Source: Candidatus Sumerlaeales bacterium
GTDB lineage: Bacteria > Sumerlaeota > Sumerlaeia > Sumerlaeales > Sumerlaeaceae
Reading direction: 5' to 3'
Assembly (NCBI GenBank): GCA_038243585.1
Contig: JBBSQY010000067.1
Location: 1-13,987 of the forward strand
DNA length: 13,987 nt
Shown here: positions 6,001 to 12,000 of the stretch, piece by piece
Position numbering within the stretch: the stretch's first letter is position 1
Layout: every line of letters starts with the position of its first letter
Made by a program: the position numbers

Positions 6001-9000
6001 TAGCAGGGAAAAACAAACCCTGTATCGACACTCTTCCACCTGTGTGGCACTAAGGGTCTCGGTGGCGCAGCCGTTGTCGAGCGCTTCTGTATCGAGAGTT
6101 ACGCCGTCAAGGGTAACCACCGGCGCGGCATGGACGGCAGCACCGGCCAGCGTTATTGCAAACATCACGGCCAGCATTGCAGTGCGGCGTTTCATGCGGT
6201 TTTTCCCTCAATCTTAAAGTTAAAGATATTAAACCCAGTGGGCGCACGAAAATTTCTTATCCGGCGTCGGTGACATGGGTTGATCATAATGCATATGCAT
6301 TTAAGCGGGTCCTGTGCCCGGCTATTAGCGTCCATTTTGAACATAACGCCTTAAATGTCCGTTTTTGGCCGCCGCCACCCCCGCCGTAAAATTTTCTGTG
6401 CCCATACGCACCCATACGTGCCCGTGCGGGAATTGTGCCGCTGAAACTTCCGCCCTATAACCATCAGCATACTTTACGAAAGGTGGTTAAAACTTATGGC
6501 GGGAATTCGTCCGGTAACACGCGAAATCTCCGGCAGGTGTCATTCCGGCGGTGTCACCCCCGGCTGGTATCATTCCATGCTGACAACGGACTGGTCCTGG
6601 GCCGGGACGCCGGGCGGGCTTTATGGCTTGTTTCAGGAGATGGAAGACAAAGATGCCCACCTGTTCGCCACGCTTCAGACCCGGAAAAACGCCTTGCTGG
6701 GGTGCCCATGGAAGGTGATCGCGGGGGACGATTCAACTGACGCTCGCGCGGCGGCGGCGCTGGTGGAACGGAATCTATTTACCCTGCCGAGCCTGAACAT
6801 GGCTCTGTTTCATCTGCTGGACGCGGTGGCAAAGGGCTTCGCCGTCGCAGAAATCATCTGGGAGGTCGATCGGGAAAGTGGTCATGTTTACGCGGCGGAT
6901 ATACGCGGTCGCAACCAGGTCGATTTCGCGTTCGACTCCGGGCAGCGTCTGTTCATGCTGAATGATACACCCGCGACAGACGGCTCAGCCAGCCGTCCGC
7001 ACCTTCGGGAAAATATGCGCGACCTGTTGCCGCGTCCCGGCGAGACGATGGTATGGGCGCAAGGAGCACAGGCGATGCCGGAACGGAAGTTTCTCCATTT
7101 CGCATTCCAGGGAAACACCTGTTCACCCTACGGCGCGGCCCTTTGCATCAAAGCTTATCAGTATTACTGGCTCAAGAAAAACACGCTCCAGCATTGGGCG
7201 CTTTTCAACGAGAAATTCGGTAGCCCCACTGCCGTTGCTCGCTATGCCGCCACCACTTCAGAGGACGACCTTCGCCGTCTGGAAGAAACCATAGCCTCGC
7301 TTCCGCAAGACACCGGGGTGCTGTTGCCAGAAGGCGTGGGACTGGAATTCCTGGAAGCGCGGCGGGCGTCCGGGTCGAACACTTATCGGGAAATGGCAGA
7401 TTGGTGCAACGACGAAATTTCGAAAATCGTCCTTGGCCAGACGCTTACCACCAGCGAAGGGCGACGTTCCGGCAGCCTCGCGCTGGGCCAGGTCCACGAA
7501 ACGGTGCGGCGTGACTACCTGGCCAGCGACGCGGCGATTGTCGGGCAGGTGCTCTCGTCCCAACTCGCGCGGTGGATCACCGACTTCAACTTCGGAACCG
7601 ATGTGCCGGCACCGAGAGTCGTGTTTGATGTTGCTCCGCCGGAGCAGTTCGAAAGCGAGCTCGCGGTAGACCGGGAGCTGATCAAGATGGGGGTGCCGAT
7701 CCCGGCCGCTTATTTTTATGATCGTTACCGCCGACCGGCACCCCGCGACGGCGAACGCACCCTGCGTTATGACGACGCCAATCTCTACCAGTATCATTTG
7801 CTCCATGGCGTGCTGACAATCAACGAGGTGCGGGCGACCTTGGGGCTGGCAGCAACGCCATGGGGAGACCAGCAAACGGGTCGCCGGGGCGGAGGCGAAT
7901 CCGCTGCCGTAGAGCAGGACATGGGCGGGCGCGGCGGAGGCCGGGACGGCGATAGAAAAGAAGGCGACGGCGATGCAGACGAGGCCACCGCAGATCGCCA
8001 GCTAGGGTAGGAACGGCTCGCCGAGCCGTCCGAAACGAAACCCCACAATCAACGCAAAAAAGAAAGGAACAAACATGCAGGATGATAACGAAGTAGAAAT
8101 GGAAGTCTTTCGCACCGGAGACTACGGCGCGAAAGGGTCATACTCGCCAGCAGATTTGCAACGGATGGCGGATGATTACCGGCCCGATCTGCTGGAAGCA
8201 CCATTAACATTCGACCATGCCCAGACGGGGCCGGCCTATGGCTGGGTAAGCCGGTTACGCTGCGACGGAGATCGCCTGGTTGCGGCGCTCAAAGGCGTGC
8301 CGGAGGCCGTGCGAGAGGCCGTGAAAAGCGGGGCTTATAAGCGCCGCAGCGTGGAGCTGTTTCGCAAGCTGCCCCACACCGGCAGGCCATATCTCCGGGC
8401 GGTATCGCTACTCGGCGCGGCCACGCCCGAAGTGAAGGGGCTGCGCGATGTTTGCTTCGCCGCAAACAACGACGCGTTGCAGGTGGAGCTGGACACAAGC
8501 GCGGCGGAGGCCGAGGTTCCGCAGTTTTCTTTCGCGGCCATGCACGCCCAGTTGCTAGAGAGCCGGCTGGCGCTGATATTTTCAGAGCTGCGGGCAGATG
8601 GTTACTGCCTGGCAGATCGGGACGCACAGGCTATCCGCCGGATCGTGACCGGCCCCCGGAGCGAAGCATCAACGGCGCAGTTTGACGACAGCGTTGCCGG
8701 CGTGACCCTCGACTGGCTGTCCGGGTTTTTGCGTCAGACGCTACTGCGGGCGCCCCTTGGCGAAGCCGCGACCCCCGCCTCGAACGGCACTAGGATTCCG
8801 CGCTTTTCTGAGGGATCGCAACTGGTCGTCGGCCACACAGACCCACGATCCATCGCCCTGCACACGAACGCGCTGCAAATCCAGTCCCAGTCGCCAGGCA
8901 TGGCGTACCGCGATGCGCTCAGGCAGGCATCACGTTAGGATAGGCATTCCTGCCCGTCCGACAGCCCTCCTCAGCGATTCCAGCCCTGCCAAATTTAGCT

Positions 9001-12000
9001 CAAATAACACTAAACCGATCACGAAAGGATCAAACATAATGGCCATCTACCTGATGGATAAGACGTATCGCATCACCAACTCCGGAGGTGTCGCATCCGC
9101 CCGGGTGGTTGTGGCGGGAGTAAGCTCAGGACACTGCGCGCTGCCCGCAGCCGCCAACGCGGGAAAGATTCTGGGCGTTACCGTAACGTCACAGCCAGAG
9201 CTTGGGCGCGGGGTCAGCGTGCGCAAGGCGGGCATAGTCGATGTGGTCGCTGCGGGGGCCATCTCCGCCGGGTCGCCGGTCAATATCGCCGACGCCACCG
9301 GCCGGGTGAAACTGGTTAACGAGAGTATCGGCACGAAAGTCCAATGCCTGGGTTTCGCCGAAACCAGCGCCAGTTCCGCAGGCGATGTGGTCGAAGTATT
9401 TATCTCCGTCCACGAGCGCACAATCTAAAAGTAGGATGGGCATTCCTGCCCGTCGCAGTGGACCATGTTTAAATAAAGCGCCGACCCTGTCGCCCGACGG
9501 ATCGGCGAGCGATGGAGGACGGGCAGCAATGCCCATCCTCCAAATCGCGCTTCAGCGGGCCAACATAATCTTAAAAAAAAGGAAAACAAAAACATGCCTG
9601 AAGTACAGCAGGTTCATATCGACGCAGCGCTCACCAATCTGAGCGTTGCCTATAGAAACAACGACTACATAGCGGAGCTGATTGCCCCGCGGGTTGCCGT
9701 GCGAAAGCAAAGCGACCGCTACTATGTCTATGACGCGGAACGCGAATCAATCCGCGCCACCGACGACCTTCGCGCCCCCGGAAGCCTGGCCGGCGAAGTC
9801 GATTACACCCTCAGCACAGACAGCTACTATTGCAGCGATCACGCCCTGGCCAGCGCTGTCCCCGATGAAGAAAGGGAGAACGCAGACCCGATTATCCAGC
9901 CGGACATCGACCGGACGGAATTCCTGACGGAGCGGATCCTTCTCAACCAGGAGCTTGCGCTTGAAGAGCTCCTGCGCGGCAGTGCAGACATAGGCGAAAA
10001 GGTTCTGGGACCCGGCTCAGAATGGAACGAGGCGGGCAGCGATCCGGTGCTGGACGTGCAGGAGGCTCGCCTGGCGGTATTCTCCCAGTGTCAGCGCCGC
10101 GCCAATGTCATGGTGTTGCCCTATCACGTTTATGAGACCCTGCGCAATCACCCGGCGGTGATAGACCGTATCAAATACTCAACGCAGGGGGTCGTCACGC
10201 CAGACCTGCTGGCCCAGGTGTTCGATGTCGACCGCGTGCTGGTGCCACGGTGTTTTGTCAATAACGCCGCCAAGGGTCAGGCCGCGATCGTAGAGCCGCT
10301 GTGGCAATCCAACGCCTATCTGATGCATGTGGCAGAGCGCCCCGGCCTGAAACAGGTGACCCTCGCAGGGACTTTCGTGTGGAACGGGATGGCCGGAAGC
10401 ATAGACGGCCTGGTGGTGGAAAGATGGCGCGATCACGGACGCAAGGCAGACATGATTCGCGTAGAGAAATACTACGACATCAAGCTGATCGCCCCCGGCG
10501 CAGGATTCCGGATCAACAACACCATCGCGTAACAAAACCCGAATCATGCACGCGCACGAGATCAGTGCGCGTGCATGAAATCGGGGCAAAAAAGAGAAGA
10601 CTCTATATAAAGAAAGGTTTAAAATATGGATCGCAAAGAAGTCGTTTACCAGGTCAACGGCGTTGCCGTGGCCTACTGGCGTCGCATGATCGCCGGCAAG
10701 ACATTCTGGATTGTCGTGGCCTTTGTTCTCACGGCGGCAGACCGCTGGAACAAGGGAGAAATATCCGGTGCCGATTTTTTTCAGATGGTACAGATCGGCG
10801 TAATAGGCATACTGATACGGACCGCCATGACCCGATCAGAACTCGCCGCCAACGCGGCAAACCCAAAAGTGGGAAGCGTCGGAGCAACCGAGAAAAAAGC
10901 AACCCTTCCGCCGGAACTGACAGGCATAGCGACCTGCCTGATAGCCGCCGGCGCACTGCTAACACTGGCAGCCTGCGCCCCCGGAACCGCAGGCATCAAC
11001 CTGGGCTAACCCCAAGCCGCATGATCCGCCCGAACGCCGACGGCGGATCATGCGGACAGGCCACTTTTGATAGCCTCGATTTCTATGATGGCCTACATTG
11101 CATAGCACCGATTTCCCTAATAACATTTTATTTTTTTCACGGCCAAAGGTTTATTGAGCGTACCAGCCTGGCCCAAAGGCCCGTACCTCTTAAAAACAAT
11201 CGTCCCAGGCCTGAAAGCTCGTTGAGCATACAAGCTTGAGCCATAGCCCCCAGGTATCGAATCATAAAGGGGCAACCGGCCCACACATCGTTTCATATTG
11301 GCCCACACATCGTTTCATACTAGGGAACCGGCCCTTGCATCGTATCATGCTGGGTTCAGCGGACAGAAATCGTGTCATACGCAAAGTGCTAAAAGACATC
11401 CCCATTGCCGGCTTTAGCCGGCCAGTCTTTGCCCCCGCATTTATGCGGGGGGCTTTGATGGGATAAAGACCTTAGCCCGCTTTAGCGGGGCTTTCCCACC
11501 GCTTCAGCATCGTCACCGACACGATCCTGCTCGGCCTGGATATATCCATCATCATAGATGCCGCTGATTTCCAAAGTATCATTGATTTTCCCAGCACCTA
11601 CAAACCCGTGATGCTCCTTTTGCTTTTGTATGTACTCAACAATGGAGCTGGTTTGCCTTTTAGAAAAGCTGACCGCCCCGTATCCGCGTTGCCATAGCAG
11701 GGCTTTTCTACCGCAAACTTTGTTAATTTCAAATGAACTGGCGCCTTTAATTTTGCCTACAAAATCGCTGATCGTCACAAATGGTTCCATCTGAAATGCC
11801 AGATGGATGTGGGTTGGCGTGCCATTTAGCGCAAGCAGGTAAATGCCTTTCACCTGCCGACAGTGTTCGGCCATAAAAGCGAAAAGCGCCGGCTCTATAG
11901 AATCGCTAATCATGGGCTTATCATACTGGCAATGCCAGTTCAGATGTATAAATATTTCGCTGAAGACATGGCTTGAGCCAAATTTCATATTGTGTGCCAT

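Follow-up and report, generated by a model that had tools for sequence, protein, structure and literature searches.

What are the genes for a phage head doing in a Candidatus Sumerlaeales genome when almost nothing else of a phage lies beside them? The question is raised by contig JBBSQY010000067.1 of this genome (G000), of which the stretch analyzed, hereafter the window, is 13,987 nt long.

The head operon and its neighbors

Five genes at 6496-11009 of the window, all on the forward strand, encode a Mu-type portal, a prohead protease, a cement protein, an HK97-fold capsid protein, and a small membrane protein. Pfam and PHROG searches reproduced the gene identities and coordinates given in a preliminary description of this DNA. 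The portal protein (504 aa; 6496..8010) matches Pfam Portal_Mu (E = 4.7e-92), phrog_113 (E = 4.1e-93), and the solved portal chain 8rka (E = 1e-32), and 59 columns in an alignment of 36 portal sequences are at least 95% conserved. The prohead maturation protease (287 aa; 8075..8938) has no Pfam match, and its match to phrog_976 (E = 2.1e-39) covers residues 8-142 only. Its histidine (in FDH) and serine (in RRSVE) are kept in at least 95% of 32 sequences. Phage Mu has a nested protease/scaffold gene, and by analogy the C-terminal half of this protein is probably the scaffold. For the cement/decoration-type head protein (129 aa; 9039..9428), the longest frame begins at 8757; the start was placed at 9039 because of homology and the 129-132 aa lengths of the relatives. 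This protein matches Pfam Phage_cement_2 (E = 2.7e-6) and phrog_673 (E = 2.4e-13), a family that carries the label "head scaffolding" in PHROGs. The major capsid protein (312 aa; 9594..10532) matches phrog_1005 over its full length (E = 3.9e-76) as well as the solved PDB chain 3bjq (E = 8.3e-15), and the closest phage capsid genes have 31-33% identity.

The fifth gene (10626..11009) encodes a small helical membrane protein of 127 aa, for which Pfam, PHROG, fold, family, and profile searches returned no match. It has 27 homologs (47-100% identity, all 117-158 aa) and is confined to a genus-level group. In G007 and G008, a homolog comes after the capsid gene. The protein has hydrophobic segments at residues 46-64 and 100-118 and a lipobox-like LTLAAC near the C-terminus, and its AlphaFold model (pLDDT 63.5) places helices at residues 12-23, 25-42, 48-77, and 96-116. 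As a guess, it may be a holin-like or particle-release factor.

These five genes form one operon, with a host-type promoter-like motif before it and a hairpin after it. The promoter-like element (6398..6433, forward strand) consists of three repeats of about 10 nt ending in CCCGTGCGGGAAT, 62 nt upstream of the start codon of the portal gene. The same element precedes the terminase copies of G000 and, in G007, G006, and G009, lies 5' of both the portal and the terminase genes. With two or fewer mismatches allowed, 10 of 36 loci have it ahead of their portal gene (background 0.010 per 360 nt). With one mismatch or none, the 13-mer occurs 38 times in G000, compared with about four occurrences expected, and the motif also precedes about 30 unrelated host genes, among them EF-G, SMC, and a glycosidase. 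The motif is a general host element that is not specific to the phage-derived genes and, given its presence before ordinary host genes, defines no dedicated regulon. At the other end, a strong hairpin (11017..11055, forward strand) directly 3' of the last gene is the likely operon end; the RNA of 11010-11075 has a folding energy of -30.9 kcal/mol. A simple terminator scan did not list this hairpin because a full T-run is missing.

Around the module lie genes for the cell envelope and for a Y1 transposase. None of the 11 other open reading frames scanned in the window has a phage structural match in the Pfam and PHROG scan; their matches are to pilin-like N_methyl, CarboxypepD_reg/PEGA, DUF11/CARDB, DUF2254, and a Y1 (IS200-like) transposase (11482-12060, reverse strand). 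The same scan found no integrase, replication, small-terminase, or connector gene in the window, and no MuA-type transposase, Gam, Mu F, tail, or lysis gene is contiguous with the head genes there. Both GC and GC3 of the module exceed the 95th percentile of the genome, which would not be anticipated for genes long resident in a genome unless selection maintains the high GC.

Descent and selection across Sumerlaeota

As reported before, 10 of the 12 other family genomes have the portal, with identities of 72-73% in the genus and then 60, 54, 53, 53, 51, 50, 48, and 40%. The portal gene is split over two contig ends in G008, and G004 has a weak second copy. Across the phylum, the portal is present in 62 of 75 genomes, G000 included, compared with 51 of 74 in the earlier Pfam-based count. 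All 10 portal-bearing family relatives have the same four-gene order, as had been described, and the four head genes stand together in this order in 33 of the 39 loci fetched. The set is incomplete in the other six because contig ends cut them. The flanking genes of the window adjoin the module in none of the 10 family relatives. In agreement with the unrelated housekeeping neighbors described before, the flanks vary by genus (e.g., PheS, LeuRS, PFK, Opp permeases, and PrmC). They differ even within the genus.

The proposal that this phage-derived module is inherited vertically is borne out by a tree of the concatenated head genes from 30 genomes, which is congruent with the RpoB tree. All six multi-member families are monophyletic in the head tree, and the family labels require six changes, which is the minimum (mean of 18.3 when shuffled, reaching six in 0 of 200 shuffles). 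The head and RpoB trees have 18 of 27 splits in common (two or fewer with permuted labels, 1000 trials), and their patristic distances are correlated (r = 0.81; matched in 0 of 2000 permutations). Between G000 and G007, two flanking host genes have 69% and 68% identity, and the module has 62-72%. Purifying selection on the module is likewise upheld. Of 32 gene-pair comparisons of the head genes, 29 yielded an NG86 dN/dS, with values of 0.03-0.36, dS being too saturated in the remaining three; for the capsid gene, the range is 0.03-0.36 (7 of 8 pairs yielding a value). In the genera that lack the adaptor discussed below, dN/dS is 0.12-0.30 in g1, where dS is saturated, and 0.03 for the capsid gene in g2. 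Taken together, these results show that in at least seven families the four head genes diverged along with their hosts and did so under purifying selection, and the module reflects vertical descent rather than a satellite or a dying prophage.

A head-only gene set, flanks that differ even among congeners, and a transposase gene 470 nt downstream would also suit a mobile, cf-PICI-like capsid-forming satellite that borrows tails from helper phages. This explanation is very improbable, since it is largely refuted by head and terminase trees that follow the RpoB tree and taxonomy. Moreover, the divergence of the module equals that of the flanking host genes, the terminase is unlinked (e.g., 133 kb off in G012), integrase, replication, small-terminase, and connector genes are absent from the window, and the Y1 transposase is of the IS200 type, on the other strand, and has its own repeats. 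Equally remote is a decaying Mu-like prophage remnant that has no present function. Although random Mu-like insertion could account for the differing flanks, and connector and tail-type genes were lost stepwise, 33 of 39 loci, from seven or more families, have all four genes intact, the dN/dS values refute decay at the level of selection, and the protease histidine and serine and the terminase motifs are conserved. Furthermore, independent decay is not expected to leave the same set everywhere.

Unlinked terminases and the loss of adaptor and tail-type genes

Lone Mu-type large-terminase genes are present in 64 of 75 phylum genomes (phrog_38, E = 1e-67 to 1e-83), and the phages nearest to them are of the D3112-like and Mu-like kinds. 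Seven sequences that share 36-43% identity show no variation in the Walker A, Walker B, or nuclease acidic motifs. Among the 75 genomes, 57 have both portal and terminase, five have only the portal, seven have only the terminase, and six have neither (Fisher odds ratio 9.8, p = 0.0025, for genomes that are kin and hence not independent). The terminase tree recovers all families as monophyletic and, like the head tree, groups f10+f11+f16. The lone large terminases are inherited in parallel with the head genes and co-occur with the portal, and the statement that unlinked large-terminase genes accompany the module stands, with their motifs intact. In G012, for example, the terminase lies 133 kb from the head module. 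The C-terminal parts of the terminase are under strong constraint (dN/dS 0.06-0.10), compared with 0.41 for the N-terminal part. No small terminase was identified. G000 has at least five terminase copies and one portal, numbers that a simple packaging partnership does not predict.

The preliminary description regarded a head-only module as a trait of the whole phylum, which does not hold. Most of the phylum keeps a Mu gp36 head-tail adaptor (54 of 75 genomes) and distal-tail-type proteins (48 of 75 genomes have a large one), and outside the family of the window these two genes usually lie directly behind the capsid gene. Within the family, the adaptor is found in 4 of 12 genomes and in none of three in the genus, and the large tail-type protein has no strong match. 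The adaptor is missing from three genera of this family, that of the window included. The genus of the window thus has neither adaptor nor large tail-type protein, yet its head genes and terminase are kept under selection. The ancestral layout of the system is shown by a complete Mu-like prophage, G035:C26, which has a transposase, Gam, portal, Mu F, protease, capsid, tape measure, and a homolog of the large tail-type protein. In the family and genus of the window, taillessness arose secondarily, by reduction.

The window probably holds, although we say so with some reserve, the operon for the head of a phage-derived particle system that is old, is inherited on the chromosome within the phylum, and goes back to a Mu-like transposable siphophage. 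The cell would assemble portal-bearing procapsids on the scaffold, the protease would mature these procapsids, and a terminase would fill them with DNA, probably that of the host because no replication or transposition genes accompany the module. The particles would exit by lysis or membrane damage, perhaps aided by the small membrane protein. In the genus of the window, the predicted product is a tailless, DNA-filled capsid, which, if made, may serve to release DNA for uptake by others, to store DNA, or for another purpose. A capsid that has no adaptor or stopper is not expected to retain packaged DNA, so the proposed tailless, DNA-filled capsid has no known plug.

Alternatively, the particle may have a tail. 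If the connector and tail genes, or others for delivery, were diverged beyond recognition, replaced by unrelated proteins, or unassembled, the product would be an ordinary tailed particle of the gene-transfer-agent (GTA) type. The G000 assembly is 89.7% complete and in 99 contigs, such that the absent genes could fall in gaps; in relatives, parts of the system lie far apart, as in the complete genome G069 (portal at 0.147 Mb, adaptor at 0.462 Mb, large tail-type protein at 5.606 Mb, and terminase at 5.643 Mb); and in genus g2 a conserved helical protein of 109-150 aa occupies the usual place of the adaptor. We nevertheless consider a tailed particle unlikely. Profiles of the adaptor, cl25, cl12, cl16, and cl9 families find nothing in the six frames of G000, and those of the adaptor and cl12 find nothing in G000, G007, G008, or the one-contig G012. 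Mu F and sheath were not found in G000, G007, or G012, and the adaptor is also missing from G007 (95% complete) and G012 (96% complete). In profile-profile comparison, the 127-aa protein and the helical g2 protein show no relation to the adaptor (probability 0.1). Another explanation, to which we assign a similarly low probability, is that the head genes and terminases serve a different job, for example as decoy portal, capsid, and terminase proteins that protect the cell by spoiling the assembly or packaging of Mu-like phages that infect it, or as stand-alone terminase nuclease-ATPases. The expansion of the terminase family to five or more copies, with its contrast in dN/dS between the C-terminal parts and the N-terminal part, would fit such a job, as would the related Mu-like prophages in the phylum (G035:C26; the weak second portal in G004) and the persistence of head genes after loss of the adaptor and tail-type genes. 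However, a co-ordered set of portal, protease, cement, and capsid genes as deep as the phylum, with the catalytic residues of the protease kept, suits the building of a shell and exceeds the needs of a decoy, and no defence-system gene adjoins the module in the window, as judged by the Pfam scan.

Comparison with known systems

The capsid-forming islands known as cf-PICIs are mobile, carry integrase, replication, small-terminase, and head-tail connector genes, and take their tails from helper phages. The module resembles them in being chromosomal, capsid-coding, and tail-less, but no integrase, replication, or small-terminase genes lie in the window, the adaptor has been lost, and descent is vertical. 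Encapsulin nanocompartments are HK97-fold shells that have cargo proteins and neither portal nor terminase; this assignment was rejected, as the operon has a portal and a maturation protease and the genome has terminases.

Mu-like siphophages (the D3112/B3-type H70, LESphi4, and PaMx73; Haemophilus SuMu; and G035:C26) share with the system the Portal_Mu portal, phrog_976 protease, phrog_1005 capsid, phrog_38 terminase, gp36, and gp37 families, as well as the gene order of portal, protease, cement, capsid, and adaptor. However, against the phages in the collection the system reaches only 27-33% identity. It differs further in having no transposase, Gam, Mu F, tail tube, tape measure, or lysis cassette, in the detachment of the terminase from the portal, and in being inherited with the host rather than by infection. 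A Mu-like transposable prophage was rejected: the head and packaging proteins are of Mu type, whereas contiguous transposase, Gam, Mu F, tail, and lysis genes are missing from the window, in contrast to the true prophage G035:C26.

The claim that no domesticated capsid had been described before outside the known GTA lineages goes too far, as other GTA-like systems are in print. GTA particles carry random host DNA, in amounts that cannot encode the particle itself. Two hallmarks of GTAs, vertical inheritance (in both the head and terminase trees) and purifying selection, were found; of a delivery apparatus, no adaptor, cl25, cl12, cl16, Mu F, or sheath was found in G000, whereas most other families of the phylum have such parts. 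The genes of RcGTA of Alphaproteobacteria are reported to form a multi-locus "genome" (PMC5026251). The Sumerlaeota system is alike in its phage-derived head and packaging genes, which are vertical with the host, under purifying selection, and spread over several chromosomal loci that have no replication or integration genes. RcGTA clusters are reported to be raised in GC relative to the genome, the excess lying in codon positions 1 and 2 and not 3 (PMC7360931); the module is also raised in GC but, unlike RcGTA as described there, is high in GC3 too. Membership in the RcGTA family was rejected. RcGTA consists of HK97/RcGTA gene families, whereas the Sumerlaeota system has a Portal_Mu portal, a D3112-/Mu-like terminase, and, in relatives, the Mu gp36 adaptor, and its terminase is solitary and multi-copy, unlike that of RcGTA. 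RcGTA has a full tail, whereas the genus of the window has no recognizable connector or tail gene, and particle production and DNA transfer are established for RcGTA but putative for the Sumerlaeota system. The system in the window is best read as a reduced branch of a GTA-like system that is new to print.

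The head operon and its transcription signals

Five genes on the same strand occupy positions 6496–11009 of the window, which is the whole of contig C67 (13,987 bases) in an assembly of 3.43 Mb (G000; 99 contigs, 89.7% complete). The first gene of this unit encodes a Mu-type portal protein (Pfam Portal_Mu, E = 4.7e-92; phrog_113, E = 4.1e-93), which also matches the solved portal chain 8rka (E = 1e-32). The second encodes a prohead protease of 287 amino acids, whose match to phrog_976 (E = 2.1e-39) covers residues 8–142 only. At least 95% of 32 sequences share a histidine (FDH) and a serine (RRSVE) of this protein, a pattern that we take to fit a His/Ser prohead protease. 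The third gene starts at 9039 (the longest-frame start would be 8757) and encodes a cement-type protein of 129 amino acids (Phage_cement_2, E = 2.7e-6; phrog_673, E = 2.4e-13), the family of which is labeled "head scaffolding" in PHROGs. The fourth encodes an HK97-fold capsid protein (phrog_1005 over its full length, E = 3.9e-76; solved chain 3bjq, E = 8e-15), and the fifth a 127-aa protein without a Pfam or PHROG family. The module was confirmed as given in the preliminary description, and the family counts and portal identities reported there were reproduced. A promoter-like element of three repeats of about 10 nt (6398–6433), ending in CCCGTGCGGGAAT, lies 62 nt 5' of the portal start, and a hairpin (−30.9 kcal/mol; 11017–11055) lies 3' of the last gene, so that the five genes look like one operon. 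Among listed sequencing runs, one DNA run, which may be the source sample, contains this stretch, and no RNA run does.

The four head genes have a GC content of 0.595–0.631 and a GC3 of 0.69–0.72, compared with 95th percentiles of 0.587 and 0.682 for the long frames of the genome; the 127-aa gene (GC 0.578, GC3 0.633) is under both. The GC3 of the one full-length terminase copy is 0.745. The clusters of the gene transfer agent RcGTA also have elevated GC, but, according to an excerpt of PMC7360931, at the first two codon positions rather than the third; as the excess here includes GC3, the two cases are only partly parallel.

The promoter-like motif TTAAG-N2-CCCRTGCGGGAAT (6421–6433) is found upstream of the portal gene and three terminase copies in G000, as well as upstream of portal and terminase genes in three relatives (G007, G006, and G009). 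With up to two mismatches, the motif precedes the portal in 10 of 36 loci (five families), against a background of 0.010 per 360 nt. The 13-mer with up to one mismatch has 38 sites in G000, where about four are expected. Other genes behind these sites include those for EF-G, SMC, a RecQ-like helicase, glycosidases (GH106), a sulfatase, NamZ, and DUF2254. Because unrelated host genes also have this motif ahead of them, it is a general host promoter-like element, and a dedicated regulon defined by it was rejected. Its presence ties the module into the transcription of the host, and it may be a major promoter type of the lineage.

Many motif sites are followed by a leader of 300–600 nt and then a large gene, and several sites have a conserved leader sequence in common. 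One gene that starts 18 nt behind the motif (C27:40282–41196, minus strand; locus L133) encodes a 304-aa protein with peptidoglycan-binding and GH46-like (lysozyme-fold) domains and a weak endolysin PHROG match through the binding domain. By its sequence, this protein is a candidate wall-degrading enzyme, only speculatively linked to the capsid system. In addition, a gene for a 604-aa AAA ATPase (C8:59300–61114, minus strand; locus L127; phrog_8638 of unknown function, E = 5e-146) is preceded by a variant of the motif with three repeats, resembling the one ahead of the portal gene.

For the 127-aa protein, there are 27 homologues of about its length (47–100% identity), and in the two other genomes of the genus the homologue is found 3' of the capsid gene. 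The protein is a small membrane protein in which two hydrophobic segments stand out and a lipobox-like LTLAAC lies close to the C-terminus, and its predicted model has four helices at a modest pLDDT of 63.5. That it could be a diverged adaptor, cement, or other module protein was rejected based on profile-profile probabilities of 0.1–0.4. The viral fold search returned no match at E ≤ 0.001, and the language-model (Atlas) search returned nothing above 0.83. From place and shape only, one might guess at a holin-like role in particle release.

Gene neighborhoods, descent, and selection

The module has no phage-like neighbors in the window. Upstream, the products of five opposite-strand genes are exported or membrane-bound, with signal peptides and with CarboxypepD_reg and PEGA domains. 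Downstream, there are an opposite-strand Y1 (IS200-type) transposase gene (11482–12060, minus strand; PF01797, E = 1.1e-20), a gene for a DUF2254 membrane protein, and a pilin-like gene. The window has no tRNA gene. Two direct repeats of GGCCCACACATCGTTTCATA and several short GC-rich hairpins are located between the transposase and the head operon (11060–12060). This region looks like an IS200/IS605-type or REP-associated element, which may have caused the local loss of synteny.

Among relatives, the four head genes have the same order in all 10 family genomes with a portal, and the flanks of the window are found in none of these 10. The genes at 2398–6195 lie beside the module in no relative, and their one homologue in G007 is on a separate contig. 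Across the phylum, 39 module loci have 39 portal, 34 protease, 33 cement, and 33 capsid genes, and the shortfalls are explained by contig-end cuts; in G032, the portal is separated from the other head genes. The flanks are genus-specific housekeeping genes, including those for PheS, LeuRS, phosphofructokinase, PrmC, ThiF, Opp permeases, and acetyl-CoA synthetase. Two species of one genus (G001 and G003) have the downstream side in common. In an empty-site comparison with G007, homologues of the two flanks of the window are on different contigs. A conserved 270-aa neighbor in the family (protein cluster cl11) was considered as a lysis or tail protein and rejected, since this lipoprotein has a fold resembling PsbP/Mog1/DcrB; its gene most likely belongs to the host, and the G000 copy is on a contig other than that of the window.

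The G032 locus (L044; G032:C26:3000–22999) has the portal gene at 6278–7840, followed by a ComM/Mg-chelatase-like gene and small unknown genes. The terminase gene is found 5.4 kb downstream of the portal (13198–14550), and no protease, cement, or capsid gene is present within the fetched 20 kb. This arrangement is another break-up of the module system.

For the phylogeny of the head genes, the portal, protease, cement, and capsid proteins of 30 genomes were concatenated; 9 of the 39 loci were left out because the portal was shorter than 400 aa, the capsid was shorter than 250 aa or absent, or RpoB was shorter than 1000 aa. All six families with at least two members are monophyletic with support of 99–100. 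The tree requires six changes of family label, which is the minimum, compared with a mean of 18.3 among shuffled labels, and none of 200 shuffles got down to six. An RpoB tree built for these 30 genomes recovers the same families and agrees in most inner groups. The two trees have 18 of 27 splits in common (mean 0.17 and maximum 2 in 1000 trials with permuted labels), and the nine discordant splits are mostly nodes with weak support in one or both trees (<95 SH-aLRT). Patristic distances in the two trees are also correlated (r = 0.81 without the long-branched G005, equalled in 0 of 2000 permutations; r = 0.84 for 67 within-family pairs). Between G000 and G007, amino acid sequence identity is 62–72% for the module proteins, 69% and 68% for two flanking host proteins, and 90% for RpoB. 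The divergence of the module is that of an ordinary host gene.

Selection was assessed by Nei-Gojobori dN/dS in 32 gene-pair comparisons (four genes in eight genome pairs). In 29 comparisons, dN/dS is 0.03–0.36, and in the other three dS is too saturated for a value. Values within the genus of the window are 0.12–0.30, which are overestimates if anything, with dS saturated at 1.3–2.1. The capsid gene in g2, a second adaptor-less genus of this family, has a dN/dS of 0.026–0.029, and the closest pair (G035 and G036; dS 0.12–0.22) has 0.06–0.23. The module genes are thus under purifying selection.

These results bear on two alternative explanations. A mobile satellite could have spread among these genomes and settled between different flanks, and a decaying prophage could have left a dead remnant of its head genes. 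We regard a satellite as very improbable, given that the head tree follows that of RpoB and that the module has diverged like host genes. A dead remnant is equally improbable in light of the low dN/dS and the conserved histidine and serine of the protease. The vertical inheritance proposed in the preliminary description is borne out by the shared splits and the monophyly of the families.

Terminases, adaptors, and distal-tail proteins

Pfam models of terminase ATPase domains find no gene (PF03237 in 0 of 13 family genomes; PF04466, PF03354, and PF05876 in 0 of 1). The terminase was recovered through its nuclease domain (PF17289) as frames of 547–712 codons in 7 of 13 family genomes, and also by PHROGs and a custom profile. 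PHROGs identifies these frames as large terminases (phrog_38, E = 1e-67 to 1e-83), with both domains covered. Seven terminase sequences that are only 36–43% identical have all kept the Walker A (PRGxAKS), Walker B (IILDDxE), and nuclease acidic (FLDP, HDDxLDA) motifs. Each terminase gene is solitary among housekeeping genes, such as those for Dxr, ribosomal protein L13, RecD2, flotillin/PspA, a histidine kinase, or ornithine decarboxylase. In G012, which is assembled as one contig, the distance from the head module to the terminase is 133 kb.

The terminase and the portal are co-inherited. By profile, the terminase is present in 64 and the portal in 62 of 75 phylum genomes; 57 genomes have both, five the portal only, seven the terminase only, and six neither (Fisher odds ratio 9.8, p = 0.0025, which is overstated because relatives are not independent). 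Among the 44 genomes that are at least 90% complete, the corresponding numbers are 35, one, four, and four. Two family members (92–93% complete) have no match to the portal, terminase, adaptor, or any large tail-type protein. In the terminase tree (29 rows, one partial sequence left out), all families are monophyletic. The grouping of families f10, f11, and f16 is found in the terminase and head trees and not in the RpoB tree. The closest phage terminases are those of D3112-like Pseudomonas phages and other Mu-like phages (27–29% identity). The same families and grouping in both trees, together with the Mu-like nearest phages, indicate one origin and one history for the head genes and the terminase.

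G000 has one full terminase gene (C36:18925–20703, minus strand), as well as partial copies at contig edges, of which four are distinct 3' ends and two are distinct 5' ends (C27:1–534, C65:14326–14655, C4:1–267, C51:2–253, C29:2–556, and C34:3–290). The 3' ends are 90–95% identical to each other in DNA sequence and about 82–85% identical to C36. Beyond the stop codon, this likeness is lost and the flanks are unrelated. Among the 3' ends, dS is 0.17–0.55 and dN/dS is 0.06–0.10. These copies are best read as at least five terminase paralogues under constraint, although co-binned strains in a mixed bin are a less likely possibility.

Other features of the terminase genes were observed. In family f16, the terminase consists of two frames split at the ATPase/nuclease boundary in all three genomes fetched, and the gene in G064 is broken near profile position 235 (loci L154, G072:C101; L155, G069:C1:5642985–5644740; L156, G067:C141; L157, G064:C162). 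The conserved split could indicate two-subunit use or a programmed recoding event. In G000, a heptamer repeat, (GTAATTC)n, occurs seven times compared with 0.07 expected (C36:19515 and 20780, C29:585, C34:535, C8:2307 and 2321, and C15:6874). It lies upstream of three terminase copies and of a gene for a 212-aa unknown protein (C8), with one more site on C15. It also occurs once within the C36 terminase frame, between the two domains, where it reads in frame as ...SNSELVIRNS...; comparable low-complexity in-frame inserts are found at the same position in terminases of other genomes.

Within the reach of the contigs, 21 of 39 loci have a gene for the Mu gp36 head-tail adaptor (phrog_195; PF07030, with E values down to 8e-29) as the first one after the capsid, and one genome also has gp37. 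Behind the adaptor, relatives have genes for a protein of about 203 aa with a weak match to a "tail assembly" PHROG, an 840–1128-aa protein with a weak match to the "tail protein" phrog_1101, a 520–760-aa protein with weak tail-fibre and spike matches, and a small protein that has a coiled coil in its N-terminal part and a membrane segment at its C-terminal end. The large tail-type proteins (clusters cl12 and cl16) have no match among sequences of solved structures. The coiled-coil protein has the motif WRGEVTNELRHI...NEHRWG and no family, ends the module in eight loci of other genera (L017:4817–5137, L020:2513–2827, L022:14971–15438, and L050:16524–16880, among others), and could be a release or lysis factor.

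G035 has an apparently complete Mu-like transposable siphophage prophage (G035:C26:96000–135999; L161–L162) in addition to the domesticated set, which is on another contig. The prophage encodes a MuA-like transposase (phrog_310, E = 1.5e-93), Gam, terminase, portal, Mu F, protease, capsid, adaptor, tape measure, and tail-tip proteins. The tape measure gene is followed by one for a 206-aa protein, behind which lies the gene for a homologue (1217 aa) of the large tail-type protein. From this layout, the large tail-type protein and its small neighbor are distal-tail parts of a Mu-like siphophage. The prophage is possibly a living relative of the ancestor and a useful outgroup. No tape measure gene adjoins the domesticated clusters examined.

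The preliminary description had called the module head-only throughout the phylum. This is correct for the genus of the window and incorrect for the phylum, in which 54 of 75 genomes have the adaptor and 48 of 75 the large tail-type protein. In the family of the window, the adaptor is present in 4 of 12 genomes (0 of 3 in the genus of the window, 0 of 3 in g2, and none in the one-contig G012), and for the large tail-type protein the 12 genomes give no strong match and one weak match, on a different contig of G004. On the trees, this stepwise loss needs the distal-tail genes to have been lost at the family base, with at least two later losses of the adaptor. After these losses, the head genes and the terminase are still under selection. 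The head-only state is therefore a derived reduction.

A proposed DNA-packing particle and known systems

Judging from gene content, we lean toward the reading that the head operon and the terminases make a DNA-packing particle, which is tailless in the genus of the window. Nucleation would start at the portal, with the capsid protein forming a procapsid on the scaffold part of what the protease gene encodes; maturation would fall to the protease, and the cement protein would stabilize the shell. The terminase would then dock on the portal and pack DNA, which would be host DNA because no transposition or replication genes are attached. Release would come about through lysis of the cell or damage to its membrane. 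Most members of the phylum would make a particle that has an adaptor and a fibre-bearing tail tip and could deliver DNA as a gene transfer agent does, and the particle of the genus of the window would be a tailless capsid. A capsid without an adaptor or stopper should not hold DNA, which counts against a tailless DNA-filled capsid. The five terminases for one portal are also odd, and are a weak point of the reading.

Two further alternatives are unlikely, and about equally so. The genus may have tail genes that are hidden or unassembled. Profile searches in all six frames of G000 found none of the adaptor or tail-type families, the Mu F and sheath families had no match in G000, G007, and G012, and the minus-strand genes at 2398–6195 were ruled out as hidden tail genes by their signal peptides or membrane segments and CarboxypepD_reg/PEGA domains. 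Alternatively, the intact head genes and terminases may have a non-packaging role, such as defence against Mu-like phages. Returning to a DNA-packing particle, we tentatively propose as a candidate that the phylum has had a Mu-type capsid and terminase since its common ancestor, that all connector and tail genes were shed in some lineages, including that of the window, with selection on the system continuing, and that the tailless, portal-bearing, DNA-packaging capsid is a cellular device. The diverging terminase copies might differ in the cargo that they choose.

Domesticated phage particles (gene transfer agents) are, to our knowledge, from few lineages and all tailed. Tailocins are tails without heads, and a tailless capsid would be their counterpart. 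No report of this system was found in the full-text literature on Sumerlaeota and phage or on head-only or tailless domesticated capsids, and excerpts of two Sumerlaeota genome papers (PMC10866078 and PMC8092238) have no relevant passage on phage, capsid, terminase, or gene transfer. The system provides a phylum-wide vertical record and a natural reduction series, from head with adaptor and distal-tail parts, to head with adaptor, to head alone, with selection on the head and terminase at each step. This series may allow one to ask what a tailless capsid is used for (DNA export, storage, defence, or gene transfer by uptake), and it singles out the genomes in which to seek that use. The solitary multi-copy terminases are a second puzzle.

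Among known systems, the closest likeness in working, as far as gene content can tell, is to a gene transfer agent with a multi-locus genome. The system is not a member of the RcGTA family, since its parts are Mu-type. It lacks the transposase, Gam, Mu F, tail, and lysis genes of a Mu prophage, and, unlike a cf-PICI-like satellite, it has no integrase or replication genes and descends vertically. Its portal, protease, and terminases distinguish it from an encapsulin. Compared with the known gene transfer agents, it has a different ancestor, a Mu-like transposable siphophage, and its inheritance extends across a candidate phylum.
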